NCBI GenBank assembly: GCA_052389415.1
Contig: JBQTHX010000018.1
Span: 9,558 to 73,557, forward strand
DNA from: Nitrosopumilaceae archaeon
GTDB taxonomy: Archaea > Thermoproteota > Nitrososphaeria > Nitrososphaerales > Nitrosopumilaceae
DNA: 64,000 nt
Direction of reading: 5' to 3'
Shown: one piece after another, positions 2,611-62,711 of the stretch
How the letters are laid out: every line of letters starts with the position of its first letter
Position numbering within the stretch: the stretch's first letter is position 1
Program-made: the position numbers and the translations under genes
Notes under the pieces: generated by a model
What the model was told of the DNA's origin: nothing
The model's input: the letters and a program-made list of their open reading frames with translations, nothing else
The model's database searches: none

Positions 2611-3204
2611 ATGGCCTATGTGTACATGCCAGGTGCAACAGCAGTCGGTATAACCTATGATGAAGGCGTAGTTATGGCAAGCGAAAAAAGAGTTGCCTAT
2701 GGGAACTTCCTTGTAAGCAAGACCACCAAAAAGACATTCAAGATCACTGATTTTGTGGGAGCTTGCTGTGCAGGATTGGTGGCAGACATGCAGGTCTTGG
2801 CAATGCAGATGAGAGCACTTACAAAAATTAGAAAAATGGAACTTAAACGTGAGATCCCACCAAACTCAGTAGCAAAGATGATGTCTTCTTTAATGTATGA
2901 ACGACGTTACTATCCTTTACTTACCCAAGTTATAGTTGGTGGAGTTGACGGTAATCCTGCAATCTATACGCTTGATCCACTGGGATCTGTACTTCCAGAT
3001 GATTATGCAGCTGTAGGAACCGGAGCCGAAATGGCCTTGGGAGTTTTGGATCAAGAATTCAAACAAGGCATGAAAGAAAAGGATGCAGTTGCCTTGGCAA
3101 TAAAATCTATAAAATCTGCTATCATGAGGGACGCAGCAAGCGGTGATGGAATAGATGTCCTAGTTGCTGACAAAACTGGAATAAGAGAATTTATTGAACA
3201 ATAA
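2611..3204 (+). CDS. psmB: Proteasome beta subunit (GAT type, likely non-catalytic)
   Basis: GATAVG, AGLVAD, DPLGS, GTG, RDAASGDG motifs. Confidence 0.92.
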   Translation: MAYVYMPGATAVGITYDEGVVMASEKRVAYGNFLVSKTTKKTFKITDFVGACCAGLVADMQVLAMQMRALTKIRKMELKREIPPNSVAKMMSSLMYERRYYPLLTQVIVGGVDGNPAIYTLDPLGSVLPDDYAAVGTGAEMALGVLDQEFKQGMKEKDAVALAIKSIKSAIMRDAASGDGIDVLVADKTGIREFIEQ

Positions 3205-3259
3205 ATTACAAATAATTTCTAAGACAGACTTATCTACCATTTGTGTTTCAAGCTGAATA

Positions 3260-4048
3260 TTGAAATTTCTGGCAATAATATTATTGGGATTAATATTTTC
3301 GTCTGTCACTTTCCCTGCTAGTGCTACGATTAGAAATGGTGCATTGACTGAGAACGATATTGAATTTTGTCACGAGGTCTACCCGCAATACAAGGCGCTA
3401 GGATTAAGCTGGTTTGTCAAAAATTACCATTACAGCATAGAGGCCAGAGTTTGTGCTAGCTTGTACGAAGATCCTGTATGGAAATACGAAGGAGATGACA
3501 GAGTAGACAAACTCATCCGACAAAGTAAATATTTTGTGCAACTAGAAATCGAGGAAAGTGAAGATGAGGCTCAATCAGGACAAGTAGATCCAACACCTGC
3601 GGGCATTTCTGAAAAATCAAACTCCATAATGAAAGTTTCCTCTGACGGAACAATTTTTGTCATAATAGAAACAACCGATGCTACTGCAGGAGAATACATG
3701 GGAGTAGACATTATTTTTGAAGATTCTGAAGAAAATCCAATTCAACACGTAAACTATGATTTGGAAGTAAGACAAAACCAGCAAGAGTTCTTGATTGTAA
3801 AATCTCAGCATGCAGAAAATGGTAAGGCCGAGCATTGGACAAGGCCATTGTTTTCAGATGATCCTGTTGATATTCAGGCAAAAATACTAGGAATTGGATT
3901 ACCTAAAGAAAGAGCAAACTGGAGTGGCCCAAACGATGAATCATTAACCTTTCAGGCTGTTCCAGAATTTGGCCTTCTTACATTGACCATACTCATGATG
4001 TCGTTGATGCTGCTTGTTCCAATACAAAAATTTAGGCAGATTCAATAA
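3260..4048 (+). CDS. Secreted PEFG-CTERM sorting-domain protein
   Basis: Signal peptide; C-terminal VPEFG followed by hydrophobic helix and basic tail. Confidence 0.85.
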   Translation: MKFLAIILLGLIFSSVTFPASATIRNGALTENDIEFCHEVYPQYKALGLSWFVKNYHYSIEARVCASLYEDPVWKYEGDDRVDKLIRQSKYFVQLEIEESEDEAQSGQVDPTPAGISEKSNSIMKVSSDGTIFVIIETTDATAGEYMGVDIIFEDSEENPIQHVNYDLEVRQNQQEFLIVKSQHAENGKAEHWTRPLFSDDPVDIQAKILGIGLPKERANWSGPNDESLTFQAVPEFGLLTLTILMMSLMLLVPIQKFRQIQ

Positions 4049-4054
4049 TGCTGT

Positions 4055-4531
4055 CTATCGCTTAATCTCTTTTGCGGCTTCCCAAAACCTATCTGAAACA
4101 TAATGCAAATTTTTTAATACCTCGCCTTTTGCCATGTTTTTCATTTCTTTGCTTGATACAAGCGTTCTGCCAACTGCCAGAAATTTGTTACGAGATTCTT
4201 CTACAACACATGCTATCTGATCCTTTTCAAACTCGGAATAGCTTTTAACACCTGGTCTCATTACTGTTGCTCCATCACAAACAAACTTTACTGCTCCCAT
4301 GTCAACTACAATTTTAGGAAATTTTTCAAGTAATGCTGTTTCAGATAAAAATGGGATATAAGAATCGTTTAATTGTATTGCTGAAAATCCCTCTCCGGTT
4401 AATATGCTTACATTATCATCAATTTCGTGAATTGTAAGAGTTTTTACTTTAGGTAATTCTATATTCCACTGCAAAGCGATTTTAGAAAAAGTATCAGAAG
4501 TACTACTCTTTGATAACAAATTTGACTTCAA
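4055..4531 (-). CDS. PUA-domain RNA-binding protein
   Basis: VVDMGAVKFVCDGATVMRPG, LHYVSD. Confidence 0.85.
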   Translation of the reverse strand: MKSNLLSKSSTSDTFSKIALQWNIELPKVKTLTIHEIDDNVSILTGEGFSAIQLNDSYIPFLSETALLEKFPKIVVDMGAVKFVCDGATVMRPGVKSYSEFEKDQIACVVEESRNKFLAVGRTLVSSKEMKNMAKGEVLKNLHYVSDRFWEAAKEIKR

Positions 4532-9331: not shown

Positions 9332-9731
9332 TGATAGATGATGAACTTTTTCTGATATTTATTCCGATTGATCCGTTATGTGGAAAACTGATATGGTATT
9401 TATTACAAAAGCTAGTTTTGAGTACATGAATTTTGAGTAAACACCAATACTTTTTTGGTTTTTCACGTTTTTTTAAAAAAAAGGGAATCTGTTATGATTT
9501 CCGAAAAAACTTCCCATGTAGGGTGTCACATAAATTGCTCCTTTAAAATGACCCTTTGAATATTTGAATAGATGAACTATCCCGATGCTAGCAGATCCTG
9601 AGAGACATGATTTTATTTAGATGGTTATTTCGAGAAAAATCTATTTAACAGATTGGAAAGATACAAGAACCTATTGTCTTTCCTGGAAATTACAATACAA
9701 GATAATTAAAGTTCTTTCGCTATTGGGAATT

Positions 9732-10190
9732 ATGAGTAAACAAGTTTGCTTTTTATGTGAACAAGAACTAGGAGTGCTAAATATAAAATGGTCTGCAAAG
9801 GGTTTTCTTTCTTCAAGAGTTCCTATTCCAGAAGGGATGGGTGAAGAGGACAGAGTTTGTAACGAGTGTTACAACGTAGAAAAAAAGCAAGTCAAAGAAG
9901 AACTAAAGGAAGCAAAAGAGGAATTTAAAGAGATAACTGTGGATCTACTCAAAAGAACGCCTGAATACAAAAAACTCTGGAACAAGGATGGTGTTATTCA
10001 GTTCAAGAACGAAAGAGTAGCTATTCTTCAAAGAGCGCTAGGCAAGCAAGTGGAATTTATCATTGCGTTTGACGATCTAACAAAGGAAGGATACAAACTC
10101 ATGGCAATACAGGAGATTCAAAGCACAGATGGTAAATCTGTAGGAGGAATTAATTCCAACTACTTTTTCCAGAAAATGCAAAGCCTGTAG
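9732..10190 (+). CDS. Hypothetical protein with CxxC...CxxC zinc ribbon
   Basis: Probable start MSKQVCFLC at 9732; CNEC. Confidence 0.65.
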   Translation: MSKQVCFLCEQELGVLNIKWSAKGFLSSRVPIPEGMGEEDRVCNECYNVEKKQVKEELKEAKEEFKEITVDLLKRTPEYKKLWNKDGVIQFKNERVAILQRALGKQVEFIIAFDDLTKEGYKLMAIQEIQSTDGKSVGGINSNYFFQKMQSL

Positions 10191-10290
10191 TTATGTAGTT
10201 CAATTCTAAAATAATAAAACGAATCTTTATTTTTAATCCATTTTAAAACTGCCCAGAATATTTATTTGAGGGAGAAATTCTCATTCATGC

Positions 10291-10529: not shown

Positions 10530-10904
10530 TTGCAAGATCCAAACCCGTTGCCATGGGGCGCACAAGACCGTTTTCAGGCTCATTTCATAGTAAGGAGAAA
10601 CCTTTCTGAAGATGACAAGGGATTTGTAGCTGAAACAAAACAAACAACCAAAGGATTCTTTGGGTCAAATAAGCTGATTAATGTAGAATGGATAGGTGGA
10701 AGTATTGCTGACATACTAAACAACGACTCTGACCTTACCAAAATGATTCTAAAACAGTCTATCAAAGATGCTCAAATTAGGATAGATCCAACAAAGAATG
10801 GAGTGAGAATTTATGGAAAATGGAAAAGCGAAAACGAGTTTGGAATCTCAAAAGAACTGTTTGCTATATACGACAGAATAGCATCTCACATAAAAAATCT
10901 CTAA
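10530..10904 (+). CDS. Hypothetical protein
   Basis: 124-aa ORF 2 bp after previous gene. Confidence 0.6.
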   Translation: MQDPNPLPWGAQDRFQAHFIVRRNLSEDDKGFVAETKQTTKGFFGSNKLINVEWIGGSIADILNNDSDLTKMILKQSIKDAQIRIDPTKNGVRIYGKWKSENEFGISKELFAIYDRIASHIKNL

Positions 10905-11437
10905 GCTCGCCACCAATCTAGTGCTATACAATCTACCTTATCTTTGCCCCGTGGTATAGCTAAGATAAATTGCTTCTTGACTGTAGTGGCAAGCCTCCCA
11001 GCCAGAACCACTCCTGTAGCAGTAATTGTATCACTGGTGTTATAGACCTGAACTAAATAGGGAGCATGATCAATTCCAGGTCCTTTTTGATATACTGCAA
11101 AATCACAACCAAATTTTATTCCGGGATTTACTATGTATCCCTTTTCTCTGAAATCTTTGTAGACTGAATATTTTTTATCAAAGTTATGGTATTCTGACCT
11201 TGCTATTTGCAATAACTCCTTTTCTGAAATTTGTTTTTTTGCTTTGTAAACTTTAATTTTTGATTTTTGTATTAGGTAATATCCTTCTATTAAATCCAAA
11301 ATCAGAGGTACGTTTATCTCATCTAGTTTTGGTTTTGATATTCCAACTGGTTTTCCATAATATCCCTGCACAAAAAGAGAACGCGAATCTTGGATGTTCC
11401 AGATTACGATTCTATTTTCTATTAGTTCGCCTTTCAA
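10901..11437 (-). CDS. endA: tRNA-splicing endonuclease catalytic subunit; likely start TTG at 11437 (MKGELIENR)
   Basis: PGIKFGCDFAVY, GPGIDHAPY, RLATTVKK (Y/H/K catalytic triad). Confidence 0.92.
   Translation of the reverse strand: MKGELIENRIVIWNIQDSRSLFVQGYYGKPVGISKPKLDEINVPLILDLIEGYYLIQKSKIKVYKAKKQISEKELLQIARSEYHNFDKKYSVYKDFREKGYIVNPGIKFGCDFAVYQKGPGIDHAPYLVQVYNTSDTITATGVVLAGRLATTVKKQFILAIPRGKDKVDCIALDWWRA
11425..11437 (+). repeat. attL core GTTCGCCTTTCAA
   Basis: Identical to 23114-23126; 46 bp before integrase ATG. Confidence 0.88.
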
Positions 11438-11483
11438 TTTAGGATTATTGTCACTTAAATGCCAGTAATTAACGTTATAGACC

Positions 11484-12740
11484 ATGCAACGAAGTCTACT
11501 GCGATTCGAAAATGCCATAAAGAGTGAATCTACAAGAAAGTCATACAGGTATCAGCTACAAAAGTTTCTGGGATGGGCAAAAGTTCCTGAAGCTGATGGA
11601 CTGTTGAAACTTAGTGATTCTGACTTGGAATTGTTGCTTGAGGATTACCTGTTCTATAAAAAAACTAGAATCAGTCCTAATAGCATTCCTTTGATCTTTT
11701 CTCCACTTGAATTATTCTTTGGTATGAACGACAAAAATGTTAATTTTAAAAAATTAAGAAAAATGTTTCCTGCTAAAGTGAAGAGAAGTGGTTATGCTGC
11801 TTGGAGTAATGAAGATGCTCGAAAAATACTTGATGGTGCGAAAGGTTATCGTAACAAAGCACTAGTTCACGTTCTTGCAAGTACTGGATGTCGACTAGGG
11901 GCTATTCCTACATTGAAAGTAGGTCATGTTTCAGACATGCAAGGTGGATGCAAAGCAATCCTTCTCTATGAAGGATCAAACGAAGAATACTACGGTTTCT
12001 TAACCCCTGAAGCAAGTAAGGCACTGGATGAATATTTGGAGAGACGAAAACAGGACGGCGAAAAAGTAGGGATTGAATCTCCACTTTTCCGTTTACATTA
12101 CAGGATAGGTTCAGCAAAGGTGGAACCGCTTAACATGATTGCCCTGCAAGCCACGATGGTGAACATCATGAAATATGCAAGACCTAAGAGACACAAGGTT
12201 GGAATACGATACAACATTCAGCTTGATCACGGTTTTAGAAAGAGATTTGCCACAATTATCAAAATGGATAAAAAGATCAGTTGGGCAGTAGGGGAAAAAC
12301 TACTTGGTCATAAAACATATCTTGATGCGGAATATTTCAATCCTACAAAAGAAAACCTTTTTGCAGAATTTCAAAAGGTTGTTTTTAATCTTACAATCGA
12401 CGATTCTGAAAGAAACAAAATAACCATTCATGATCTAAAACAGCATAATTCTACTCTTCAAGTCAAGACTGCAGAAATTCCTGAAATGAAGAAGCAGATT
12501 GAACATGATCACTTGATAGTTCAGGTATTGGCAAAAACTATGAAGGAGATTGGAATAAATTTTGAATATCCTGACGGCACGCCATATAAGATTGATGAAA
12601 ATCTCAAAATCCCTGCTGAATACCTTCCTGAAACTGTTGCATACGATAAACCTCTAGTTGCACATAGCGAAGAAATTTTTCGTAAGATGCGTGAAAAAAA
12701 TAGTACTAATTTTTTTAATGGGGAAAAAAGGTCCTACTAA
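11484..12740 (+). CDS. Tyrosine recombinase/integrase
   Basis: STGCR (R), HGFRKRF (HxxR), LLGH, DAEYF (Y nucleophile); N-terminal STRKSY..L..F segment. Confidence 0.93.
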   Translation: MQRSLLRFENAIKSESTRKSYRYQLQKFLGWAKVPEADGLLKLSDSDLELLLEDYLFYKKTRISPNSIPLIFSPLELFFGMNDKNVNFKKLRKMFPAKVKRSGYAAWSNEDARKILDGAKGYRNKALVHVLASTGCRLGAIPTLKVGHVSDMQGGCKAILLYEGSNEEYYGFLTPEASKALDEYLERRKQDGEKVGIESPLFRLHYRIGSAKVEPLNMIALQATMVNIMKYARPKRHKVGIRYNIQLDHGFRKRFATIIKMDKKISWAVGEKLLGHKTYLDAEYFNPTKENLFAEFQKVVFNLTIDDSERNKITIHDLKQHNSTLQVKTAEIPEMKKQIEHDHLIVQVLAKTMKEIGINFEYPDGTPYKIDENLKIPAEYLPETVAYDKPLVAHSEEIFRKMREKNSTNFFNGEKRSY

Positions 12741-12957
12741 ATTTTAGAGAATTTTTTCTTGTTTTAATTACTTAGTAAAATAAATTCATCACACTTTATA
12801 CATTTCCAGAAACCTATGATTACGCCTAAAACCTCACACTAAGCGTGATATGATGTGTGATATTATAAAAAATGTGAAAATAGCCATAATGTTAGGCATA
12901 ACAAAATCACATTTTGATAGCTACCACAGGCATAACGTTTTCAGTACCGCATATTTT

Positions 12958-13380
12958 TTATGTTCACATAATTTTTTAAAATCACATAATTACACATTTT
13001 AGGCACATAATTAACATCTAGATATTCACATAAAAAATTGCCAAAAGTTTTTTTTGACCCGATACAGCTTGTTTGACACATCTTATGATTTGAATCTTTT
13101 AGGTCCATAAGAAAATCTTAGGAATAAGATTTTGAAATATTCTAAGATCAGGCATTTTATTCCTAAGATTCCTTCTATCTTGTTCCTAAGAAAAAAGGTA
13201 TTGTAATAACATTTAGCATATTTGCTTGTAATACCATATGACTCGTTGCAGGAAACGTCATAATATGGGACGAGTGAGTTCTTATAGGCTCATATTAAAA
13301 TCATGTGCACATGATTTTATGATATCACATGATCTGGTTTTTTGTTCACATGATCATTCACAAGCTACGCACATGAAAAA
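12958..13380 (+). repeat. Three modules of identical geometry (X'-N4-X-N13-X-N16-X-N18-X-AAAA) with X = CATAA, TAAGA, CATGA
   Basis: X at 12967/12985/13006/13029; 13125/13143/13164/13187; 13310/13328/13349/13372. Confidence 0.88.
13296..13319. repeat. Perfect 24-bp palindrome TAAAATCATGTGCACATGATTTTA
   Basis: Read directly; head of module 3. Confidence 0.9.
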
Positions 13381-13481
13381 GAGGTCTATTCAAATGAAAA
13401 AAGCTTGTATGACAAAAGCCTCGACATAAGCTTGATTATTTTGTACAAAAAGATGCGAATTTATCCATTTATGCAACAATT

Positions 13482-13505
13482 GCGTAATCATTGTATAGAT
13501 TACGC
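13482..13505. repeat. Dyad GCGTAATC-N8-GATTACGC overlapping the stop codon of the EndoIV-like gene
   Basis: Read directly; direct copy at 14457-14482. Confidence 0.8.
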
Positions 13506-14345
13506 GGATAATTCCTTTACTTTTTTTATGTTTCCAAAGTCATCGCGTCTATCATCTATTGGCGTTTCCAAAATGATTGGAATCTTCTTAGAACTAGCAA
13601 ATTTAATCACGTGTCTGAGTCCTTCTTCTCCTATCTTGCCTAATCCAATGTGCTCATGTCTGTTTACGTTGCACCCTATTTCTCCCTTCGAATCATTTAG
13701 ATGAATTAGTTTGAGGTGCTCAAATCCTATGGATTCATCAAATTTTTTAAGCGTTGTTGAAACTGATGTTTCAGTTCGTAAATCATATCCTGCTGCAAAT
13801 GCATGGCAAGTGTCAAAGCAGATGCCAAACCTATTTGCAGGTTTGAGTTGCCGCAAAATGGAAGCTAGCTGCTCAAAATCAGAACCTACGCTGTTTTTGA
13901 ATCCAGCCGTGTTCTGAAGAAGAATCATAACATCGTTTTGGTTTTCTGAAGTAGCTTTTGTAAACGCTTCAACAAGCTTTTCTATTGCCCTCTCGTCACC
14001 CGCTCCCATGTGGCTTCCTAGCTTAGATATGAGGTATGGAATGCCTAGTTGACCAGCTCTTCTTGTCTCATCAATTAAGCTGTTCAAAGATCTTACAAAA
14101 AAATCTCCATGTGGAGATGATAGATTTGACAGAATTGGCATTTTAGCAAACGTTGCAAACCTGTCAATTTTACTTGCAGCAAGTTTTTCTCTAAAATTAG
14201 TTATAACATCATTTGAAAGTGGTTTTGCTTTCCACCCACGTGGATTTCTTGTAAAAATTTGAAAAGCAGTGCAACCAAGAGTTAGTGCGTTATCTACTGC
14301 TCTATCGATGGAACCACTGATGGATACATGCATTCCAAGCTGCAT
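13500..14345 (-). CDS. Endonuclease IV (Nfo) paralogue with substituted metal ligands
   Basis: GMHVSISG, FQIFTRNPRGW, CFDTCH, IHLNDS, ILETP present; KMPI, SKLGSH, QNTAG, NRH replace HMPY, THLGSH, ENTAG, DRH. Confidence 0.92.
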   Translation of the reverse strand: MQLGMHVSISGSIDRAVDNALTLGCTAFQIFTRNPRGWKAKPLSNDVITNFREKLAASKIDRFATFAKMPILSNLSSPHGDFFVRSLNSLIDETRRAGQLGIPYLISKLGSHMGAGDERAIEKLVEAFTKATSENQNDVMILLQNTAGFKNSVGSDFEQLASILRQLKPANRFGICFDTCHAFAAGYDLRTETSVSTTLKKFDESIGFEHLKLIHLNDSKGEIGCNVNRHEHIGLGKIGEEGLRHVIKFASSKKIPIILETPIDDRRDDFGNIKKVKELSA

Positions 14346-14772: not shown

Positions 14773-15992
14773 GTGGGAAAATTTTCTGCAGCTTCGTCTG
14801 CTCTCGGATACCTATTTCAGGCAAGGGAAGGATTACTCCTATTACTAAATTCAGAACCAAAAACTGTCATGTATTTAGAACGTTTTGATGACATAGAATT
14901 TGAAAAAGATGGTTCACCAACGGAACTAATACAGTTAAAACACAAACCAAGGTCGGCAACATCTCTGTCGGATACTAGCCCGGACATATGGAAAACACTA
15001 CGAATTTGGATTGAAGCGCATAAGAGCCGCCATGTTAACTTAGATAACACAATTTTCACCATAATTACTACAAATAAGGCAGAACATAATTCTGTAGCAA
15101 GTGTATTAGGATTAGATCAATCTAAACGGGATGTCAAATACGCTGTGGAGACTCTAACAACAGTGGCTAAAACTTCAGTTAGTAAGACTAACGAAGTAGC
15201 ATACAAAGTCTTCTTAAATCTAGAATACGGCGAACAATACAAATTATTAGATAGCACAAGAATCATAGATTCAGCTTCAACTATAGTAAATTTGCAAGAG
15301 GCATTCTACAAAAAATTAAGAATAGCCATTGACCAGAACACCTCAAATCCTTCCTCGAACGATTAGAGGGGTGGTGGTTTGGCGTTGTCATTAGTCATTT
15401 ATCCGGTGACTCTTCAGAACCAATTCATTATGAGGAGTTAGAAGCAAAGATTCATGATCTAAGTGACCAGTATCGAGTTGAAGATCTGCCAATAGATTAC
15501 AGAAACCTGATTCCTACAGAGGAAGCAGAATTAACAGCAAAACAACAAATTTTTGTAAATCAACTAAACATCATCATGTTAAGACAACCCAGAATAAAAA
15601 AAGCTATTACCGATTATTACAAAGCGTATAATCAACGGTCAAGATGGGTAAGAGAAAAGCTTGTTTTTCTCAACGAACTAAGTGAATATGAATCACAGTT
15701 AATTGATGAATGGGAACGTTATTTCTTTAAAGTTGATGAAGGTCTTCGTTCTACCCCCACCGAAGGCGAGTTAGTGAGTGCAGGAAGAACAATTTTTGAC
15801 TGGATGGATACTCAAGCCGATTTCTGCATAAGAAAGTATTGTACGGAACCATACGTTATGAGAGGCACGTATCATATTCTTGCAAATAAACTTCGTGTAG
15901 GCTGGCATCCAAAATTCCTAGAGCGTCTACAAGAATTACTTTCACCAGATTCGGAGAAACATTATGGAACAACAGAAAGAGCGTCCAATTGA
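14773..15992 (+). pseudogene. Lamassu LmuA/DdmA-like Cap4-type PD-(D/E)xK nuclease, frameshifted at ~15330
   Basis: SALGYLFQ, ERFDDI, LIQLKH; alternate frame from 15333 reads PEHLKSFLERLEGWWF and is open into ORF 15576-15992 (RGTYHILAN..VGWHP). Confidence 0.85.
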
Positions 15993-16449
15993 AATAGCGT
16001 CCCTTCTTAATCCAGCATTTTGTGGTCAGACTATATTGCATTGTATTTACAAATTTGAAAAAGTTGCTTCAGATGGATTCCCATACCCGTTGGTTTTTCT
16101 AGTATTGCCATTAATACTACATCAGGAAACAAGAGCAAAGGTTCCTTCTTTTACCCGCATCCCGTTTCATGTTTGGCTCCATAAAAATCAGAATCTGTTA
16201 ATTGGCTTCGCAGAACGTGCAAAACAATTGGTCACAATTACGAAAGAAGCCATTGCATTCTTGGCGAGTTATGACGTACTTAAATTAGAAGATGGAAAAT
16301 TCAGAGTTAGTAACTTTGAACCAAAATATGATGCTGCTATCTCACTGGATGTAAAGGATTGCTTTGCGAAGGCGGAAGTATTAGGAAAGTGGTTTGCAAG
16401 AACGGGTACTACAGCGACAATATATTCTATGTTAGGAGTGCAACCCTAG
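15964..16449 (+). CDS. ABC three-component middle protein (LmuC/DdmB-like, DUF6521-like)
   Basis: RP.EIASLLNPAFCG, LVLPLILH, LGKWF; lies between effector and SMC-like ATPase. Confidence 0.8.
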   Translation: MEQQKERPIEIASLLNPAFCGQTILHCIYKFEKVASDGFPYPLVFLVLPLILHQETRAKVPSFTRIPFHVWLHKNQNLLIGFAERAKQLVTITKEAIAFLASYDVLKLEDGKFRVSNFEPKYDAAISLDVKDCFAKAEVLGKWFARTGTTATIYSMLGVQP

Positions 16450-16450
16450 T

Positions 16451-18367
16451 TTGCAAATTTTGCAAGTAATTCTATATGGTTATAATAACAAAGTACGTAC
16501 GTTATCGTTTAAACTAGGCTCAGTAAACATAATCACTGGTAATTCTGCAACAGGCAAATCCGCCATACTAGAAATTGTTGATTATTGTTTAGGTAAATCG
16601 GAATGTTCGGTACCAGCTGGCGTCATCCGTGATTCAGTAAGATGGTTCGGAATTGTTCTACAACTGAAAAATAGTCAAATGTTTATTGCAAGGAAAAATC
16701 CTCCAGCTGGTAGCACATCTTCAGAAGTGTACATAGAGGAAGCTAAAGAGATTCGTATTCCGTCCTCTCCAATGCCAAGTAATAGTAATGTTGATGCATT
16801 AATTGAGACTCTGAGTAATAAAGTCGGAATATCTCCTAATCTTTACATTCCACCGAGAGGTCAAACGCGAGAAAAGTTATCCGCGACGATACGTCATACT
16901 ACATTCTTCTGTTTTCAAAAGCAGGATGAAATTGCGACCAACAGATATCTATTCCATCGTCAAGCAGATGGTTTTATCGCGCAATCGATTAAGGATTCTT
17001 TAGAATATTTTTTGGGCGCGATTAGGGAAGACAGATTAGCATTACTACAGAAATTAACTCTAGAAAAGAGGAATTTAAGCAAAGCAGAACGAGAACTGGT
17101 CGAGGCAGAAGCAATTAGAGGGGAAGGAATAAGCAAAGCTGTAGGATTAATAATACAAGCCAAAGAAGTTGGACTTGCTTCTCAGGAAGTTAACACACAA
17201 ACACCGGAAGAATATCTAAAAGTGCTCCAAAATATTTCAAAATGGAGACCTCGCGATCTAAAGGTTCCAAAAGCAAATCTTTTAGAAAAACTACAAGATG
17301 ACCTGCTGACACTAAAAGAAGAATTAAGAAGGAAAAATGAAGAAATAAATTCAGCAGTTACATTCTCTCAAGAGGCAGAAGGATTTACGGATGAGATACA
17401 ATATCAAGAACACCGTCTCGAATCTATAGGGCTATTTGATGAACACAGTGAATCCGATTGCCCCATGTGTTCGCAGCCTATTAAGGAAAGGAGTGATAAA
17501 GCTAAAGAAATTCAAAAGATGATTCATGAACTAAAAAATAATCTTGAGGGCTCACTGAGAACAAGATCGAATATTAGAGATTACATAGCAAAATCTGACG
17601 AAGAAGCAGAATCGATCAGAAAGAAAATCGACGAAAAAACCATTGAAATTTCATCGTTAATACAAGAACATGAATCATCAAGCAAGTTACGTGATGAGAA
17701 TATCCGGCAAAGCCAGATCATTGGCAAGATAAAATTTTGGCTCGAGAGTGTTGCTCTTACAGACGAAACGTCAGAATTGCGGTTGGCTGTTGAAAAAGCT
17801 AAGAAGAAAGTGAAGGAACTAGAATCATTAATTTCTGATGAGGAGAGAATAATGCGTCTAACTAGGATTTTGAACATTATCGGAAGGCAAATGTCTATTT
17901 GGACAGAAGAATTAGAATTAGAGCATAGTGGATATCCTGTTTATTTTGATATTCACAAATTAACAGTTGGAGTAGAAAAAGATGAACAATATATTCCTCT
18001 AATAGAAATGGGGAGTGGCGAGAATTGGTTAGGCTATCATATAATAGTAAATTTTGCTCTGCATTTGTATTTCCATCGGCATAATAGACCAGTACCAAGT
18101 TTTCTCTTCTTAGATCAACCGTCTCAAGTCTATTTCCCGCCAGATTTAGCAGATGAGTCGAAGGGTTCAATAGCTAAACTGAAAGATCGAGATAGAGATG
18201 CGATTAAAAGGATATACAATTTCATTTTCAAAGTTACAGAATCAATGGCGCCAAACTTTCAGGTAATAGTAACGGATCATGCAAAGTTGGACGATCCTAA
18301 ATTCCTTAAAAGTATTAGAGAAGAATGGAGAGACGGTAAAGCTTTGATTCCTCAAGATTGGCAATAG
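16451..18367 (+). CDS. Rad50/SMC-like ABC ATPase (LmuB/DdmC-like, DUF3732)
   Basis: Walker A ITGNSATGKS, coiled coils with CPMC hook, GSGENW signature, LFLDQPSQVYFP, VIVTDH. Confidence 0.88.
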   Translation: MQILQVILYGYNNKVRTLSFKLGSVNIITGNSATGKSAILEIVDYCLGKSECSVPAGVIRDSVRWFGIVLQLKNSQMFIARKNPPAGSTSSEVYIEEAKEIRIPSSPMPSNSNVDALIETLSNKVGISPNLYIPPRGQTREKLSATIRHTTFFCFQKQDEIATNRYLFHRQADGFIAQSIKDSLEYFLGAIREDRLALLQKLTLEKRNLSKAERELVEAEAIRGEGISKAVGLIIQAKEVGLASQEVNTQTPEEYLKVLQNISKWRPRDLKVPKANLLEKLQDDLLTLKEELRRKNEEINSAVTFSQEAEGFTDEIQYQEHRLESIGLFDEHSESDCPMCSQPIKERSDKAKEIQKMIHELKNNLEGSLRTRSNIRDYIAKSDEEAESIRKKIDEKTIEISSLIQEHESSSKLRDENIRQSQIIGKIKFWLESVALTDETSELRLAVEKAKKKVKELESLISDEERIMRLTRILNIIGRQMSIWTEELELEHSGYPVYFDIHKLTVGVEKDEQYIPLIEMGSGENWLGYHIIVNFALHLYFHRHNRPVPSFLFLDQPSQVYFPPDLADESKGSIAKLKDRDRDAIKRIYNFIFKVTESMAPNFQVIVTDHAKLDDPKFLKSIREEWRDGKALIPQDWQ

Positions 18368-18830: not shown

Positions 18831-19895
18831 ATGTATCCACTGATTGACGCCGCACGACTTTACGATGAACTTGCTTTGTCGTCGGAGAGAATTAAATGGT
18901 CTTGGGCTTGCAGAATTTTAGATAAATCCAACCTTAAGATTGATACTTCACTGCCAACGACGCCAAGAGCTGGTGATATTGTTCTTGTAAGAGTGGAACA
19001 AATTGGTTATCATAAATCAATCATAGCTTCTAGCAATAAAAAACTCCGTATATATGATGGCGATCTTATCATGGGAATTTTTGGGAACCGATATGCCACA
19101 AACGCACTTGAAGGTGTAGTCGAAGGATTTGAAAACCTCAGCATTTTGACTGCAGGTGGAATGATTGGAACGGTAAAATCCAAACATCAAGACTTTGGGA
19201 AAACTACCAACGTCTCATTTATTGGGTTTCTAAATGACAAGAGTAACCATAGGGTTAACCTAAAAGAACTGAAATTTCACAAATCGAAACCAGTCAGCGA
19301 TACAAAAAATCTAATAGTTTTAGTTGGAACAGGAATGAATACAGGCAAAACAACATCTGTTAGAATGCTAATTAGAGGACTTTCAAAAAGGGATCTAAAA
19401 ATAGCTGCATGCAAACTTACAGGTAGTGTGTCAAATAGAGACGCAGACGAAATGAGGTCCGCATCAGCTAGCTGTACAATTGATTTTAGCGATTATGGAT
19501 TTCCTTCAACATATCTGTGTGACAAAGAAGAGTTACTTGATCTCTTCAATAATATGTTATCTGATGTGGAAAAGTTAAATCCAGACGCAACGGTGATGGA
19601 AATTGCTGATGGTATTCTTCAAAGAGAAACCATGATGCTTCTTGAGGATCCATCAATTAAAAAAAGAGTCAAAGGCATTATACTAACAGCGGAAAGTGCA
19701 CCATCTGCGCTTTATGGTGTTGACAAACTCAAAAAATTAGGTTACAATATAATCGGGGTATCGGGTGCAATGACATCGTCACCATTATTTGTAAAAGAAT
19801 TCAGGCAAAACTGCGAAGTCAGAGTAGCGTCATCTGTTGATTCGGCGGATGAATTGGTCGAAATTGTTCACAAGGCTATTACTATGGAAAACTAG
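18831..19895 (+). CDS. DUF1611-like P-loop protein
   Basis: GNRYAT, GTGMNTGKTT, KLTG, EIADGILQRET. Confidence 0.72.
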   Translation: MYPLIDAARLYDELALSSERIKWSWACRILDKSNLKIDTSLPTTPRAGDIVLVRVEQIGYHKSIIASSNKKLRIYDGDLIMGIFGNRYATNALEGVVEGFENLSILTAGGMIGTVKSKHQDFGKTTNVSFIGFLNDKSNHRVNLKELKFHKSKPVSDTKNLIVLVGTGMNTGKTTSVRMLIRGLSKRDLKIAACKLTGSVSNRDADEMRSASASCTIDFSDYGFPSTYLCDKEELLDLFNNMLSDVEKLNPDATVMEIADGILQRETMMLLEDPSIKKRVKGIILTAESAPSALYGVDKLKKLGYNIIGVSGAMTSSPLFVKEFRQNCEVRVASSVDSADELVEIVHKAITMEN

Positions 19896-19911
19896 AAGAC
19901 ATTGTTGAAGA

Positions 19912-21684
19912 ATGAGCTCACAGCAGATATCTCCAGTAAAATATGCACTTAAGCATCTTAAAAAATATAAGCTAAAATTAGCAGCTGCCATCTTCTGGTC
20001 TATTCTTTTTGTAATAATTCCTATGCAGGTGCCTATTCTTACTGGAGCTTTAATTGATGGCATACATGGAAAGAGTGTAAAATTATACGGACTTGTAGAA
20101 TTAAATCAATCACAGGAACAAATTCTCAATCTTGCTGTTATAGGTCTAGTTCTAGTTGCCGCAATTTATGGTGTCACTGCGTATTTTCGTACAACTGCAA
20201 GAGCAAAGATAAGTCGGCACTTCATATTTGAGCTTCAAAAAGCACTGATTCAAAAATTAGAATTTCTATCCTTAGATATACACGCAAAATACGGATCTGG
20301 AGAACTACTAAACAGAACAATAGTTGATACTGGTTCAGTAAGACCGTTTGTTGAAGGCACTATAATCAAAGCGTGCACCAACGTTGTTAGAATAACATAT
20401 CCATTTCTAATACTGTTCATTATGGATCCAATTCTTGCTGCAATGTCTTCGTCAATCTTGCCCGTTCAATTCTTACTTACTAGAACTCTACAAAAAAAAG
20501 TTCGTAAAGCGTCAAGACATTCTAGAAAAAACAGATCAAAGTTAACCACCTTCGTAAAGGAAAGTCTTGATGGCATAGAAACAATTCAAACTTCAAATGC
20601 CGAAAGATATTCAATTGAGAAAATTTCCCGACAAGCAGAAATGGTGGAAACCCATCAATTACATACTCAGAAATATTTTGGACTGATGACTGGTCTTGCA
20701 TGGTCTCTAACTAGTTTAGGACTAGCAATAACATGGTGGCAAGGTGGACTCAAGGTCATATCAGGAGAAATGACAATAGGCAATCTAATAGTTTTCACAG
20801 GGTTTGTACTCTTTATTTATGCCCCCCTGCGCAGATTTACGGAAGTAATGAAGGATTACCATAAAAGTATAACAGCAGTTGAGAATATTCAAGAAATTCT
20901 GGATACACCTTCATCAATTCAGGAATCTCCAGATGCGGTACAATTAACAGCGCCACATGGAAAAATAGAACTCCAGAACGTCAGTTTTTCATATGCTGAA
21001 CGCAAAGTATTGAACAATCTTAACATTACTATCGAAAAAAATAGCATTACAGCCATAGTAGGTAAAAGTGGTTCAGGGAAGAGCTCTCTTTTAAAATTGA
21101 TTACAAGACTGTATGATCCCTCGGAGGGACAAATTCTGATTGATGGACAGGATATCAAAAAAATCACTCTTCTATCCCTTAGAAAGGCTATCGCAGTTGT
21201 TCCTCAGACACCTGTGATCTTTAATGGAACAATACTGGAAAATGTCAGATTAGCAAGACCAGAGGCAACAGATCAAGAAGTAATAGAAGCATGCAAATCA
21301 GCTGACGCGTTGGAATTTATTCTTAAACTTGATAGGGGATTCAACGCAGTTCTAGGAACTGGTGGAACCAATCTTTCTGGAGGACAAGTCCAACGAGTAG
21401 CCATAGCAAGAGCCTTACTTAAGAAACCAAGAATACTTTTGCTGGATGAACCCAGCTCCGCCTTAGATGCTAAATCAGAATCAGCTGTGATAGCAACGTT
21501 AGAACATCTAAAAAATAATATGACAATCATATTGGTTGGGCATCATCTTAAAGCAATTAGCAGTGCAGACAGATTAATCGTATTAGATGACGGAAAAGTA
21601 GTGCAAGAAGGAACTCATAAAGAACTTGTTTCTTCACAGGGAGTTTACAGTCTCTTGTATTCTTGGGAGGAAAATAAAAATTGA
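19912..21684 (+). CDS. ABC exporter, fused TMD-NBD (MsbA-like)
   Basis: GKSGSGKS, LSGGQ, LLLDEP; N-terminal TM domain. Confidence 0.92.
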   Translation: MSSQQISPVKYALKHLKKYKLKLAAAIFWSILFVIIPMQVPILTGALIDGIHGKSVKLYGLVELNQSQEQILNLAVIGLVLVAAIYGVTAYFRTTARAKISRHFIFELQKALIQKLEFLSLDIHAKYGSGELLNRTIVDTGSVRPFVEGTIIKACTNVVRITYPFLILFIMDPILAAMSSSILPVQFLLTRTLQKKVRKASRHSRKNRSKLTTFVKESLDGIETIQTSNAERYSIEKISRQAEMVETHQLHTQKYFGLMTGLAWSLTSLGLAITWWQGGLKVISGEMTIGNLIVFTGFVLFIYAPLRRFTEVMKDYHKSITAVENIQEILDTPSSIQESPDAVQLTAPHGKIELQNVSFSYAERKVLNNLNITIEKNSITAIVGKSGSGKSSLLKLITRLYDPSEGQILIDGQDIKKITLLSLRKAIAVVPQTPVIFNGTILENVRLARPEATDQEVIEACKSADALEFILKLDRGFNAVLGTGGTNLSGGQVQRVAIARALLKKPRILLLDEPSSALDAKSESAVIATLEHLKNNMTIILVGHHLKAISSADRLIVLDDGKVVQEGTHKELVSSQGVYSLLYSWEENKN

Positions 21685-23018
21685 TTCAACTAGATTCTGT
21701 TCTGAAACCTATAGAAAATCACAACTCATCTGAATCTGAAATTATTGGTTTTTCAGAAGAGGATAGGCCATTAACCGTTACATACCATGGTAGAAACATA
21801 AAATCATCACTTAGGGTTTTTATTATTGCGGGTCAACATGGAGACGAAAGATATGGACGTAAAGCCATTGATCGTTTTATTACTTACATGACAGATGGAA
21901 AACTAAATTTTCCACTAATGCAGTTTGCAATTTTGTCTAACGCAAATCCAGACGGTGCGTCAGTAAGGAAACGAGAAAACGCACAGGGGATAGATTTGAA
22001 TAGAGATCATCAACGTTTGGACAGTAAGGAGAACCGCTGTGTACATTCCTTCGTAAGACGATGGAATCCACACATGATTATTGATGTACACAACTACCCT
22101 TCAAAAAGGAAACATCTACTAGAAAAAGACATCATGCTATATTATGATGTACTTGTAGACGTTCCAACAAATCCAGCTGCCTATTGTATTAAAGAAAAAA
22201 GCAAAGCAGAATTCATAAAAAATATTCGTTCAGATCTACGATCTCATAACATTAATTGTGAAAGATACTTTATTGTAAAGCCATCGGGGAGAGTCAGACA
22301 TGGTAGCCCTGACATAGTAGACGCTAGAAATTCGCTTTCATTAAGGTACAACACTTTGACTTTTCTAGTAGAGGGACGAACTTCCACACGAGGAGAAGAT
22401 AAATCCTACAGGGAACATCTTGTTTCTTCCCAATGCGAAGCGATTGCATCAATACTGCGATGGACCCAAACGCAAAGAAGTTCTTTAATGGAAAATCAAA
22501 ACTCCATTCCTAAAAAAGGAGACAATGTCGCAATTAGTTCGAGATATGTAGGAGCTACTCAACCATTTGAAATAAGTTTTAAGAATTTACAAACAAGAAA
22601 ATTGGACGTTGTTTCACTTGTAAAGTATACGCCCAGCATAAAAGTTACAAAATATGCTACTTTACCAACTTGTTACGCTATTCCATCAGGTAAGTCCAAG
22701 GTCATTGAAATGCTACATAGACATGGATTCGTGTCTGCGCTTTCTGACTCCCATAAGTTTGAAAATATTCAATATTATAGTATTCAGTCTGTAAAATATT
22801 CAACACGCGAAAATAGAGCGCCAAGGAAAATCACTATGTTGACAAAATCAGAACAAAGAAGATTAGATAAATTCTTTATTTTCCCCACATCTCAAAGAGG
22901 AGGTCACTCGCTTGCAGTCTTTTTGGAGCCTGACTCGAAGTACGGACTTCATAGATACGCCGATCTAGATCTGCCAATTATTCCAGATTCACATTATCAT
23001 ATCTTACGAATTATGTGA
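21681..23018 (+). CDS. M14 family zinc carboxypeptidase
   Basis: QHGDE, NPDG, RENAQGIDLNRD, IDVH. Confidence 0.85.
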   Translation: MIQLDSVLKPIENHNSSESEIIGFSEEDRPLTVTYHGRNIKSSLRVFIIAGQHGDERYGRKAIDRFITYMTDGKLNFPLMQFAILSNANPDGASVRKRENAQGIDLNRDHQRLDSKENRCVHSFVRRWNPHMIIDVHNYPSKRKHLLEKDIMLYYDVLVDVPTNPAAYCIKEKSKAEFIKNIRSDLRSHNINCERYFIVKPSGRVRHGSPDIVDARNSLSLRYNTLTFLVEGRTSTRGEDKSYREHLVSSQCEAIASILRWTQTQRSSLMENQNSIPKKGDNVAISSRYVGATQPFEISFKNLQTRKLDVVSLVKYTPSIKVTKYATLPTCYAIPSGKSKVIEMLHRHGFVSALSDSHKFENIQYYSIQSVKYSTRENRAPRKITMLTKSEQRRLDKFFIFPTSQRGGHSLAVFLEPDSKYGLHRYADLDLPIIPDSHYHILRIM

Positions 23019-23113: not shown

Positions 23114-23126
23114 GTTCGCCTTTCAA
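23114..23126 (+). repeat. attR core GTTCGCCTTTCAA
   Basis: Identical to 11425-11437; 1 bp from the DUF47 stop codon. Confidence 0.88.
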
Positions 23127-59265: not shown

Positions 59266-59624
59266 TTATGGAAATGAGGATCTAAAAACCACAAATGCAC
59301 AAGGACGTCATATTGCTTACAGACACTTCCAAATTTGGAAATAACAAGATAAAATATGCCTGGACAAAATTTTAGAAATGAATCTATTGTATGTATGTTA
59401 TAGAATTTACATACATGTCGAGTTTTTCATTTCATTAAACACATTTACTCATGTTATCAAACCTAGATCAATTACTAGTTTATAGTTAATAGAACCAAAA
59501 TCTAAAATTCATTACAAAAATTTTTGAAAAATTATTTGATCATAGAAAAGCTATCATTAATCCTCCATTTCCAAACTTGGCAGAAGGGAGTTTTATACCA
59601 ATTATCATTACCAAATTTAGTAAA

Positions 59625-62600
59625 ATGAAAAAATTCAGTCATCTTAACAGTAGGATATGCAGTTTTCTTATTGCAGTAATATTATTGAGTGGAGCTACAG
59701 CATCCAATATTCAGTTAGCAGCTGCTGTTACTAGTCCTGTATTATATGCAGGTACTTCAACTGTTGCCGCTAATCAATGGCAAAACCCAACTAATGCACT
59801 AGGTGTTGAAGATTCTCTTTGTACAACTAACTTGGGCAATAACAGAATAATAAAACTGACTAACTTTGGTTTTAGCATCCCGTCTGGTTCTACAATTGAT
59901 GGTATTAAAGTCGAGGTCAAATATGCATCATCTGCTGGTAGCAACTCGGATGTTCAACTCCTAAGTTCCTTACTTGCCGTAGGTGATGTAAAAGAAATAT
60001 CACGACAATCCTCTAGCACTGATACTTGTGTAGAATCAATCTTTGGTGCCTCTAGTACTGCTGGCTCGTCAAGTGATCTTTGGGGTGCATCTTGGACAGT
60101 AGATGACATTAATTCCACAGATTTTGGAGTACAAATACAATCCAGCTCTGCTGCAAACAGTGAATTTGTAGACAGCGTAAGAATTACGATAGAATATACA
60201 ACAAACGATGATGACGGTGATGGAATACCAAATGATAGTGACAATTGTCCTACAGTGCCAAATGCAGATCAGGCAGATAATTATGGAACAAGTGCAGGTG
60301 ACGCTTGTGAAGATTCCGATTCTGATACTATATTAGATATTACTGATAACTGCCCTACCACACAAAACACAGATCAAGCTGATAATTATGGCGGTCCTTT
60401 AGGTGATGTCTGCGATGACAATGATCTAGATACCATCTTTGATATTCCTGATAACTGTCCACTAGTTGAGAATCTTGATCAAGCCGATTCCGATGACGAT
60501 GGACTGGGCGATGCATGTGACCTAGATGATGATAATGATGGCATCCCTGACGATGATGATAACTGTCCTATAGAGGAAAATCCAGGTCAGGAAGACTTTG
60601 ATCAAGATGGATTAGGCGATGTATGTGATGACGATGATGATGGGGATAATGTTCCAGATGATCTTGACAACTGTCCTCTTGTAGTCAATCCAGATCAATT
60701 AGATAACGAAGGAGATGGCATAGGGGATGTATGTGATGACGATGATGACAATGACGGCGTATTAGATGACTTCCCTGACAATTGCCAATTTGCACCAAAC
60801 GCAGACCAGACAGACACTGATAACAACGGTATTGGTGATGCGTGTGATGGAGATATTGATGGTGATGGCTTACCAAATGAAAATGACAACTGTCCAAATG
60901 TTCCTAATCTTGATCAATTAGACACTGACGGTGACGGTGCTGGAGATGCATGTGATGACGATGATGACAATGACGGCGTATCAGATGACTTCCCTGACAA
61001 CTGTCCTCTAATAGAGAATGCAGACCAATTAGATACTGATCAAGACGGAATAGGAGATGCATGTGATGACGATGATGACAATGACGGCGTATCAGATGAC
61101 TTCCCTGACAACTGTCCTCTAATAGAGAATGCAGACCAATTAGATACTGATCAAGACGGAATAGGAGACGTTTGTGATGAAGATATTGACGGTGATGGAA
61201 CACCAAACAACAATGACAATTGTCCACTTGTAGTCAACGCAGACCAAACAGACATTGATAACAACGGTATTGGTGATGCATGTGATGGAGATATTGATGG
61301 TGATGGAACACCAAACGACAATGACAATTGTCCTACAGTGCCAAATGCAGATCAACTAGATACTGATCAAGACGGAATAGGAGATGCATGTGATGACGAT
61401 GATGACAATGACGGCGTATCAGATGACTTCCCTGACAACTGTCCTCTAATAGAGAATGCAGATCAACTAGATTCAGATAGTGATGGAGTTGGTGATGTTT
61501 GTGAAACAATAGATCTTACAGTTACGGCACTAGACCAAACAATAATCAACCTATCATGGACTGGTGCACCAACTTCAGAATGTGGTGACTTGATAGGATA
61601 TGACATTTACAGAATGGGGCCAGACGACGAAGGCCTTGTTTATCTTGCTTCTGTAGGTGCTGATACAACAGAATATTCAGATACCGAACTTGATGGAAAT
61701 ACGGAATACACATACATGGTAGTTGCAATCTACGACGGCGAATGTTCCCCAGTAGAATCTAACGAAGCATCAGCAACGACTGCTCCATTTGTAAACAAGA
61801 AAGGAGGATTATCATTTGATGTAACCGCTCCAACTACAAACGGAATAAGCTTCTCCTCGACACAAGATGGAACAGATACTGAAGGATTTGGTGGAAGACT
61901 GGCATCATACTCTAATGATATTCCAACACAGGTGATGAACACAGGAGTAGAACAACGATTCCAGGTTAACATTTATGACAACAACGGAATTGCCGCAGTC
62001 AAACGAGTAGTGATAAACATGTTCTTTGACTACATGCAAATTCAAAAAGCAGATACTTACTTTATGTATGAAGAAGATGGACAAAAATTAACAGTATCAG
62101 ATCCAAACGGATTCTTTGGAGATGTAAAAGTACATAGAACATTTACAGAAACAGAGATGGTACTAACATTTGTCTTTACACCACAAAATCCAATGCCAAT
62201 AACTGACTTGGTGATCAACGCTGAAGACGAATTTAGAAACAACCAGAATACTATTGTCTTTGGTGCGTTTGAGATTCAAGGTGAACCAATATCATCTGTA
62301 GAATCTAGCATGGCAGCAGCAGAGATTCCATACTACAAGAATCCAGACTGGAACCAGTTTGTGATAGATGCAGATGGAAATACGTTGGCCTATGATTCCT
62401 TTGGTAACTTGGACATAAAGCCGATGCAGGTAATAGTACCATCCGTACAATACGGTGATGTAGGAAAATCTGAGAGACATGATGATGGTTTCTATGATAA
62501 AGTATCAGCAGAGAAGGCAAGAATACAAGCACTAGTAGATTCAATGAATCCACAAAAATTACTTGAATCAGAAGAGACGGCAAAGAATGTCAAGATATTC

Positions 62601-62711
62601 CAGTATCCAAGTAATGTAGGTAAAGGCGACAGAGCTGATACCAAGTCAATGAGTGATCTAAAACAAAAAGAGCATTCAAAAGCGATGAAATTAGTCAAGA
62701 GAATTTCATAA
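59625..62711 (+). CDS. Large secreted protein with thrombospondin type 3 repeats and an FN3 domain
   Basis: Signal peptide; repeated DNCP...N.DQ.D.D.DG.GD.C; LSW...Y.IYR...YTY FN3 pattern. Confidence 0.9.
60942..61460 (+). repeat. Near-identical 111-bp coding repeats inside the TSP3 array
   Basis: Unit starting GGAGATGCATGTGATGACGATGATGACAATGACGGCGTATCAG at 60942, 61053 and 61380. Confidence 0.85.

Follow-up and report, generated by a model that had tools for sequence, protein, structure and literature searches.

Three non-coding modules of fixed geometry and differing sequence words beside the integrase of a thaumarchaeal integrated element

The window, which is the whole 64,000-nt stretch of DNA analysed here, comes from an ammonia-oxidising archaeon and carries an integrated element of 11.7 kb, inserted at the start of endA (Table 1). 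The empty site is found in three genomes of the same genus (G008, G001 and G009), in which the sequence at window position 11441 is joined directly to that at 23115. The integrase gene is followed by a gene-free gap of 759 nt and then by the convergently oriented nfo gene. This gap holds the array described below, at a distance of 1.5-1.9 kb from the att core. By homology, nfo also follows the array in the related locus L057; the conserved backbone of this element family consists of the integrase and the array region only. In family and profile searches, no recognisable DNA-binding regulator or replication initiator is found among the ORFs of the element, and none of these ORFs matches a Rep, winged-helix or primase family.

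In the empty site of G008 the first endA codons are TTG AAA GGC GAA, to which the att repeat is the reverse complement. In the integrated state, the sequence preceding endA is element-derived, and the gene has an in-frame extension of 24 codons (ORF 10901-11518, 205 aa, compared with 181 aa in the relatives), so the element must also supply the endA promoter. In the cargo defence system, the two LmuA ORFs (14773-15366 and 15576-15992) match positions 5-182 and 265-370 of the PADLOC LmuA model (of 373 positions), with a gap of 210 nt, and the effector gene is either split or interrupted. The right end (18831-23018) encodes a P-loop protein, an MsbA/HlyB-type ABC exporter and an M14/MpaA-like peptidase, a set of cargo genes that may have to do with peptide export or the cell wall. 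In G006, of the same genus, another insert of approximately 4.8 kb is present at the same endA site (L053:8400-13202); it has genes for a double winged-helix protein and a plastocyanin-like protein, and has neither an integrase match nor a unit of the kind described below.

Table 1. Features of the integrated element and of the related units (positions refer to the window unless a locus is named)
Feature	Position	Strand	Description
attL	11425..11437		13-bp direct repeat GTTCGCCTTTCAA; minus strand gives the first codons of endA
Tyrosine integrase	11484..12740	+	418 aa; Pfam PF00589, E 9.5e-8; NCBIfam XerA-type, 62.8 bits, below cut-off
Leader	12789..12943	+	TCACA at 12789, 12834, 12907; TTTATA at 12795; inverted GTGATAT at 12845, 12857; GCATAAC repeats at 12896, 12930
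U1	12958-13033 (to 13037 with AAAA tail)	+	Word CATAA, core ATAA; TTATG-N4-CATAA-N13-CATAA-N16-CATAA-N18-CATAA, then AAAA
U2	13116-13191 (to 13195 with AAAA tail)	+	TCTTA / TAAGA, core AAGA; 22-bp palindrome from 13112
U3	13301-13376 (to 13380 with AAAA tail)	+	TCATG / CATGA, core ATGA; 22-bp palindrome from 13297
Tail of non-coding region	13381..13499		87.4% identical in L057; palindrome TTTTGTACAAAA
nfo, deoxyribonuclease IV	13500..14345	-	Convergent with integrase; NCBIfam TIGR00587, 254.8 bits (cut-off 129.65)
Lamassu / ABC-3C defence system, cargo	14773..18367	+	LmuA (two ORFs), LmuC, LmuB; PADLOC; Pfam CTD7, MC3, DUF3732
attR	23114..23126		13-bp repeat again, marking the right end of the element
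U3'	L057:1766-1845		Near-copy of U3, 90.8% identical; first base of X varies C/T; spacer 3 identical at 18/18 positions
U4	L058:1641-1720		Fourth core, AACA; TGTTT / CAACA, AAACA, TAACA, TAACA
U5	L059:1781-1860		Same spacers, partly degenerate; CCTTG / GAAGG, X2 CAATA, X3 and X4 TAAGA

The array consists of three non-coding units, U1 to U3, each of approximately 80 bp and with the layout revcomp(X)-N4-X-N13-X-N16-X-N18-X, in which the word X differs from unit to unit. The start-to-start distances are 158 bp between U1 and U2 and 185 bp between U2 and U3. A preliminary description of this DNA had noted modules of the same geometry and different words after the integrase, with spacers of 4/13/16/18 nt in each, and this is borne out when the sequence is read directly and when it is scanned: a back-reference scan of both strands, in which X may be any 5-mer, returns exactly three matches, U1, U2 and U3, in the window as well as in the whole genome (94 contigs, 1,430,811 bp), as compared with an analytic expectation of 4.5e-5 per genome. 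In the shuffled-sequence null proposed in that description, the pattern is found neither in 100 dinucleotide shuffles of the window nor in 3000 shuffles of the 759-nt AT-rich spacer. A degenerate IUPAC form of the unit gives three matches in the window and none in 100 shuffles. When all spacers are relaxed (to 3-6 nt and 9-23 nt), two extra matches are obtained, on C61 and C87, which are unrelated and have other spacings. The three units, together with approximately 45 nt upstream of each, can be aligned as homologous tandem copies. Judged from this alignment, the units are tandem paralogues of one another; stacked remnants of other elements, one of the possibilities that had been suggested, are not supported. 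The concerted change of the word within a fixed geometry, in homologous non-coding modules, is supported by the scan, the alignment and the spacer identities.

In each unit the inverted pair is followed by further copies of the word, such that there are four direct copies of X at unequal distances of 18, 21 and 23 bp. The sequence shared per repeat is just 5-9 bp, and with the 18/21/23 spacing not all sites lie on one helical face. The palindrome half-sites, of 4 bp, are inverted and 10 bp apart from centre to centre, which is one helical turn, and in U2 and U3 the inverted pair is extended to a 22-bp palindrome, AAAA-N4-N6-N4-TTTT. Additional copies of the words are present just 5' of the units (CATAA at 12885, 12897 and 12931; TAAGA at 13108; TCTTA at 13081). 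The leader word TCACA also occurs inside sites of U1 and U3, and on these sequences the specificity gap between U1 and U3 is possibly smaller than it appears. A decayed gene for a repeat protein, which would have refuted the preliminary description, does not account for the units: six-frame translation gives no frame common to U1-U3, and the frame that is open through U3 meets stops in X itself in U1 and U2. Comparison by eye of the small ORF after U3 with its counterpart in L057 gives two synonymous changes, four non-synonymous changes and one stop-loss, a pattern that does not indicate purifying selection.

One metagenome scan identifies five loci, L057, L058, L059, L060 and L061. The integrases of L057 and L058 are 82% and 84% identical, respectively, to the window integrase, and L058 shares the endA insertion site. 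No unit is present in L060 and L061. Other words on the same scaffold, for which a search had been recommended, are found in the related elements L057, L058 and L059 (Table 1). This is also seen in a 4-mer scan with the 18/21/23 distances fixed and the inverted copy included, in which only U1-U3 are found genome-wide and, among 56 other loci, only L057 and L058. The six units, all of them from four related elements of which three are short metagenome contigs, align with zero indels, and the spacer identity is 34-62%, when compared with a random expectation of approximately 29%. The constrained part of X consists of its last four bases, which are ATAA, AAGA, ATGA or AACA (A-W-N-A). In five of the six units one 4-bp core is common to all five copies and position 1 drifts (U3' and U4); in the sixth unit, U5, the inverted pair is altered jointly (CCTT/AAGG). 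The inverted repeat X'-N4-X1 is preserved in 6/6 units, and its 22-bp extension in U2, U3, U3' and U5.

When the window is compared with L057, the identity is 90.8% for U3, 87.4% for the tail of the spacer, 84.6% for the integrase gene and 68.2% for nfo; the value for U3 is close to the baseline of the element, and the conservation of U3 alone is therefore no proof of constraint. The homology between the window and L057 ends at 12604 and restarts at 13294, and the homology between the window and L058 ends at 12943. The breaks at 13294 and 12943 lie 7-15 nt before a unit, which shows the units behaving as exchangeable modules. In L057, the place of U1 and U2 is taken (L057:1400-1600) by a cluster of the self-complementary word TAGCTA with A/T runs on the flanks; there are six copies at 1441-1576, with spacings of 13, 12, 15, 43 and 52 bp, which is a different array on the same theme.

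The leader is conserved as well. TCACA is found at 0, +45 and +118 in the window, L058, L059 and L296 alike, and the inverted GTGATAT is at +68 in these four, with a further copy at +56 that only the window and L296 have. In 3/3 of these loci that have a unit (window, L058 and L059), the first unit starts exactly 169 nt after the first TCACA. In L296, which is more distant, the leader is present, but it is followed by a purine-rich pseudo-unit only. L296 belongs to a soil-type thaumarchaeal MAG, and its integrase gene (2974-4274) is divided between two reading frames (2974-4038 and 4086-4274), which points to a frameshift or a fault in the assembly.

Integrase homologues occur in 145/301 genomes of the order, and the 1.5-kb flanks of 29 such loci from the order contain no unit. 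At the DNA level, the 759-nt spacer is matched in none of 40 related genomes, and BLAST gives no match to it in phage and plasmid collections. A covariance model, applied to 150 family genomes, gives weak matches only (E 0.01-1), and none of the 29 loci inspected has a concerted word; these negative counts on order and family genomes include the unpublished G287, G126, G276 and G363, which are used for no positive claim. In the collection scans, the loose IUPAC pattern gives, among the matches listed, chance matches in AT-rich bacteria. The stricter pattern gives 73 genome and 11 viral matches, with a uniform core only in poly-A cases, and one Clostridia match with 4/5 ATAA is taken as chance; the patterns of these scans were fitted to the few units described here and may miss distant members. 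The integrase-based locus search finds no locus in genome contigs or viral contigs with a single protein as the query, and one locus in genome contigs (L296) and none in viral contigs with an alignment as the query.

The best explanation of these observations is that the units, together with the leader of approximately 200 nt, make up a non-coding control region close to the integrase in a small family of integrative elements of thaumarchaea. As to how this region works, we tentatively favour, at somewhat less than an even chance, that the units are cis-acting docking modules of double-stranded DNA, in which the palindrome and the phased half-sites are read by proteins supplied in trans. The inverted half-sites, which are often flanked by A4/T4, would take up a protein dimer, and this dimer would nucleate more protomers on the three direct half-sites 18, 21 and 23 bp further on, and often also on one more upstream copy of the word. 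The different cores (ATAA, AAGA, ATGA and AACA) would be read by different specificity variants, provided by the host or by co-resident mobile elements; no reader is encoded in the conserved backbone, and for this reason the readers would come in trans. The rigid 4/13/16/18 spacing and the 169-nt leader distance fit a nucleoprotein assembly. The most likely role is the maintenance or control of the excised element, by a site of the origin, centromere or operator type. Taken singly, a maintenance site is a doubtful proposition, a site of transcription control more doubtful, and any other docking function more doubtful again.

In our analysis a protein-docking platform, as the preliminary description had proposed, is the reading that fits best. 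Among the element ORFs, family and profile searches give no binding protein for the units, so that their co-evolution with a protein family is something that we infer. What counts against docking is that the word shared between repeats is much shorter than a classical iteron, that the spacing leaves the sites on more than one face of the helix, and that three specificities in one gene-poor element would need three unseen readers. The genome contains no second locus of this geometry that could be the cognate one.

It is unlikely, but conceivable, that the units act as transcribed RNA, in which a hairpin and single-stranded words bind protein or RNA, as in a sponge or a switch. The transcript would start from the conserved TTTATA box of the leader or from T-rich boxes inside the units. 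This box is a TATA-like hexamer of the type that is enriched 28-36 nt before start codons here, and it is conserved in L058 and L059; U1 has TTTAAA between X1 and X2 and is followed by a T8 run, the strand in question has no protein gene farther downstream, and X' could pair alternatively with an upstream or a downstream copy. With TATA-like hexamers in the leader and inside U1, transcription across the array, and with it an RNA role, can still be envisaged. The exact TATA hexamer is, however, absent in U2, U3 and U4. A promoter weight matrix drifted to generic A/T on iterative refinement and was dropped; its seeded version has a TATA core and no strong BRE.

The pairing itself is in better agreement with DNA. 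All 44/44 paired cells of the palindrome are Watson-Crick pairs, without G-U, 4/9 pairs are changed on both sides, and the covariation score is equalled in 2/500 shuffles. The z-scores of folding are about equal for the two strands (-2.9 and -2.4), and both strands thus fold alike, as does a DNA palindrome and unlike a strand-specific RNA. The covarying helix is limited to X':X1, the direct copies X2-X4 have no pairing partner, and RNAalifold gives just -9 kcal/mol over 264 columns. The sequence downstream of the units differs between the paralogues and is not conserved. Rfam 15 gives no match in the window region, where the best overlapping model is a plant miRNA (18.8 bits, compared with a gathering score of 100), and nothing in the arrays of L057-L059. 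The RNA alternative, which the preliminary description had already called the weaker one, is weakened further by these comparisons.

Sites with a related logic are known, and the logic of the proposed docking modules would be that of iterons combined with an inverted-repeat operator, or that of a P1-type parS. The iterons of theta plasmids (F, pPS10 and R6K type) are direct repeats accompanied by an inverted-repeat operator, and a classical iteron measures 17-22 bp. As in the units, an inverted pair of the same word accompanies the repeats, and different replicons keep the layout and change the word; the four direct copies in a unit, near two-turn spacing, may correspond to the iterons. The element described here differs in that it has no Rep gene, adjacent or elsewhere, in that just 5-9 bp are conserved per repeat, at the unequal 18/21/23-bp spacing, and in that three heterospecific sets stand side by side in an archaeal integrative element. 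In the P1-type parS, as far as described in the text of PMC10999674, BoxA heptamers are combined with BoxB hexamers, and BoxB discriminates between related plasmids. This site resembles the units in its short words and its fixed asymmetric layout with an inverted pair, and specificity between related elements depends there on a few bases of one word class, as is proposed for the units; the words and the layout are, however, unrelated. The element has no parA-parB pair and no ParB. In its P-loop protein (18831-19895), which is without a relative in the PDB, the Walker A motif is of the classical kind, and by motif the protein is not ParA-type.

The association with the integrase leads to a third reading, in which this integrase subfamily uses the arrays as accessory, arm-like sites, bound through the C-terminal tail or by a factor that the tail recruits, and controlling integration or excision. 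We consider this reading quite unlikely. The tail, of approximately 110 aa, comprises a long helix and a nearly invariant peptide of approximately 22 residues, and is present in just 11 of 5.8 billion proteins, each of which is an integrase. Units are found in 4/5 loci with a tail-bearing integrase and in 0/31 loci of other integrase homologues (29 from the order, with L060 and L061), an association in which the loci are few and related and therefore not independent. The linkage to the integrase clade, for which a test had been proposed, thus holds only for a very small tail-bearing subfamily and is not seen in the 31 loci of other homologues. The DNA of the tail (12464-12740, residues ~327-418) is 87-91% identical across integrases whose catalytic domains are 24-45% identical. 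In L059, the integrase core is only ~36% identical, yet the nucleotide identity is 87-91% from integrase residue ~327 through the leader, and by these identities the tail and the leader look like one recombining block, travelling together. Against arm-like sites, the tail is invariant whereas the word of the units varies, three different cores would be hard for one integrase to read, and the array, at its distance from the att core, has no word in common with it. In the structural model, the tail is predicted as one long helix (307-355) with a low-confidence or disordered end and has no DNA-binding fold; the tail as a DNA-binding domain was rejected on this model.

The arm-type sites of lambda attP, where multiple Int, Xis and IHF sites are described in the text of PMC8371274, are like the array in that repeated short sites beside the integrase gene build a higher-order complex. 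These arm sites lie within an attP of ~240 bp, whereas the array is far from its core and has three words. A lambda-type set, expected within ~150 bp of the core and with one word, is not what is seen when comparing the core (11425-11437) with the array (12958-13380). The earlier suggestion of stacked accessory sites left by related elements is not supported, in view of the same distance, the placement of the array inside one element and the lack of shared sequence with the att core.

A variant of the docking reading, which we regard as rather improbable, takes the units as heterospecific sockets, each serving a different helper (virus, plasmid or ICE), whose initiator or whose partition, packaging or transfer protein would read it. 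If this were true, a gene-poor defence island with only its own integrase could be replicated or moved by several helpers or, conversely, could titrate helper initiators as an incompatibility-type decoy. The swap of a unit would then re-aim the island, and helper choice in archaeal mobile elements would be written in a cis-code of exchangeable modules. Finally, it is very unlikely that the units have no function and are tandem duplicates, now in decay, of an ancestral regulatory region: the very narrow distribution (none in the 40 relatives at the DNA level, the 150 family genomes or the collection scans) and the partly degenerate U5 would fit decay, but under drift the five cores of a unit would not stay identical where those of other units have changed, and the spacer lengths would not all be preserved at 34-62% identity.

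Returning to the docking modules, their interest lies in the context of the element. According to the text of a survey of integrated elements of thaumarchaea (PMC6563490), many of these are cryptic and without visible replication proteins; most of those of ammonia-oxidising archaea are "cryptic" in the sense that they have an integrase and cargo and no visible replication or transfer genes. A repeat array of this kind is not mentioned in the text of this survey, and the text of a review of archaeal tyrosine recombinases (PMC8371274) describes no "arm-type" or comparable array for archaea. Further literature searches show nothing relevant among the articles listed. In the present element family, a non-coding region with nucleotide-exact geometry and exchangeable words is the sole conserved part besides the integrase. 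If the units are docking sites, it is through them that such islands are controlled, copied or moved; they would also serve as a direct bait for the proteins that read them, and would provide a clean natural example of site arrays that diversify in specificity while the architecture is kept.

Several known identities were compared with the units and rejected. Host operators for the U2 or U3 palindrome are not seen: the U2 palindrome has a single other exact match in the genome, and this match is inside a coding sequence. The units share no word with att beyond A/T runs, att-like sites are not supported, and the units have no complementarity to the att core, as would be needed for an RNA guide. 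An integron attC array does not agree with a stem of only 5-9 bp, with the lack of ORFs between the units, or with an integrase score of 62.8 bits, when compared with the cut-off of 220 of the XerA/integron model. CRISPR was tested and is not supported, and no tRNA or tmRNA is found in the window. Mimicry of host ORBs was rejected as well, the ORB repeats beside cdc6 (L295:2764-2793 and 2826-2855) being unrelated to the words of the units. The region beside cdc6 (L295:2540-2860, contig C84 of G000) is itself a candidate chromosomal origin, with three ORB-like repeats of 30 nt (97% identity between two of them) and an inverted partner, and it is AT-rich at ~2620-2670.

Two further observations concern the window outside the element. 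All four same-genus relatives compared lack a segment of 866 bp (9391-10256), whose 189-aa ORF belongs to no known family. At 60207-61504, tandem DNA repeats of 78-291 nt, rich in GAT/GAC, lie within a 1044-aa ORF (59577-62711), and their composition suggests Asp-rich repeats of the calcium-binding type.
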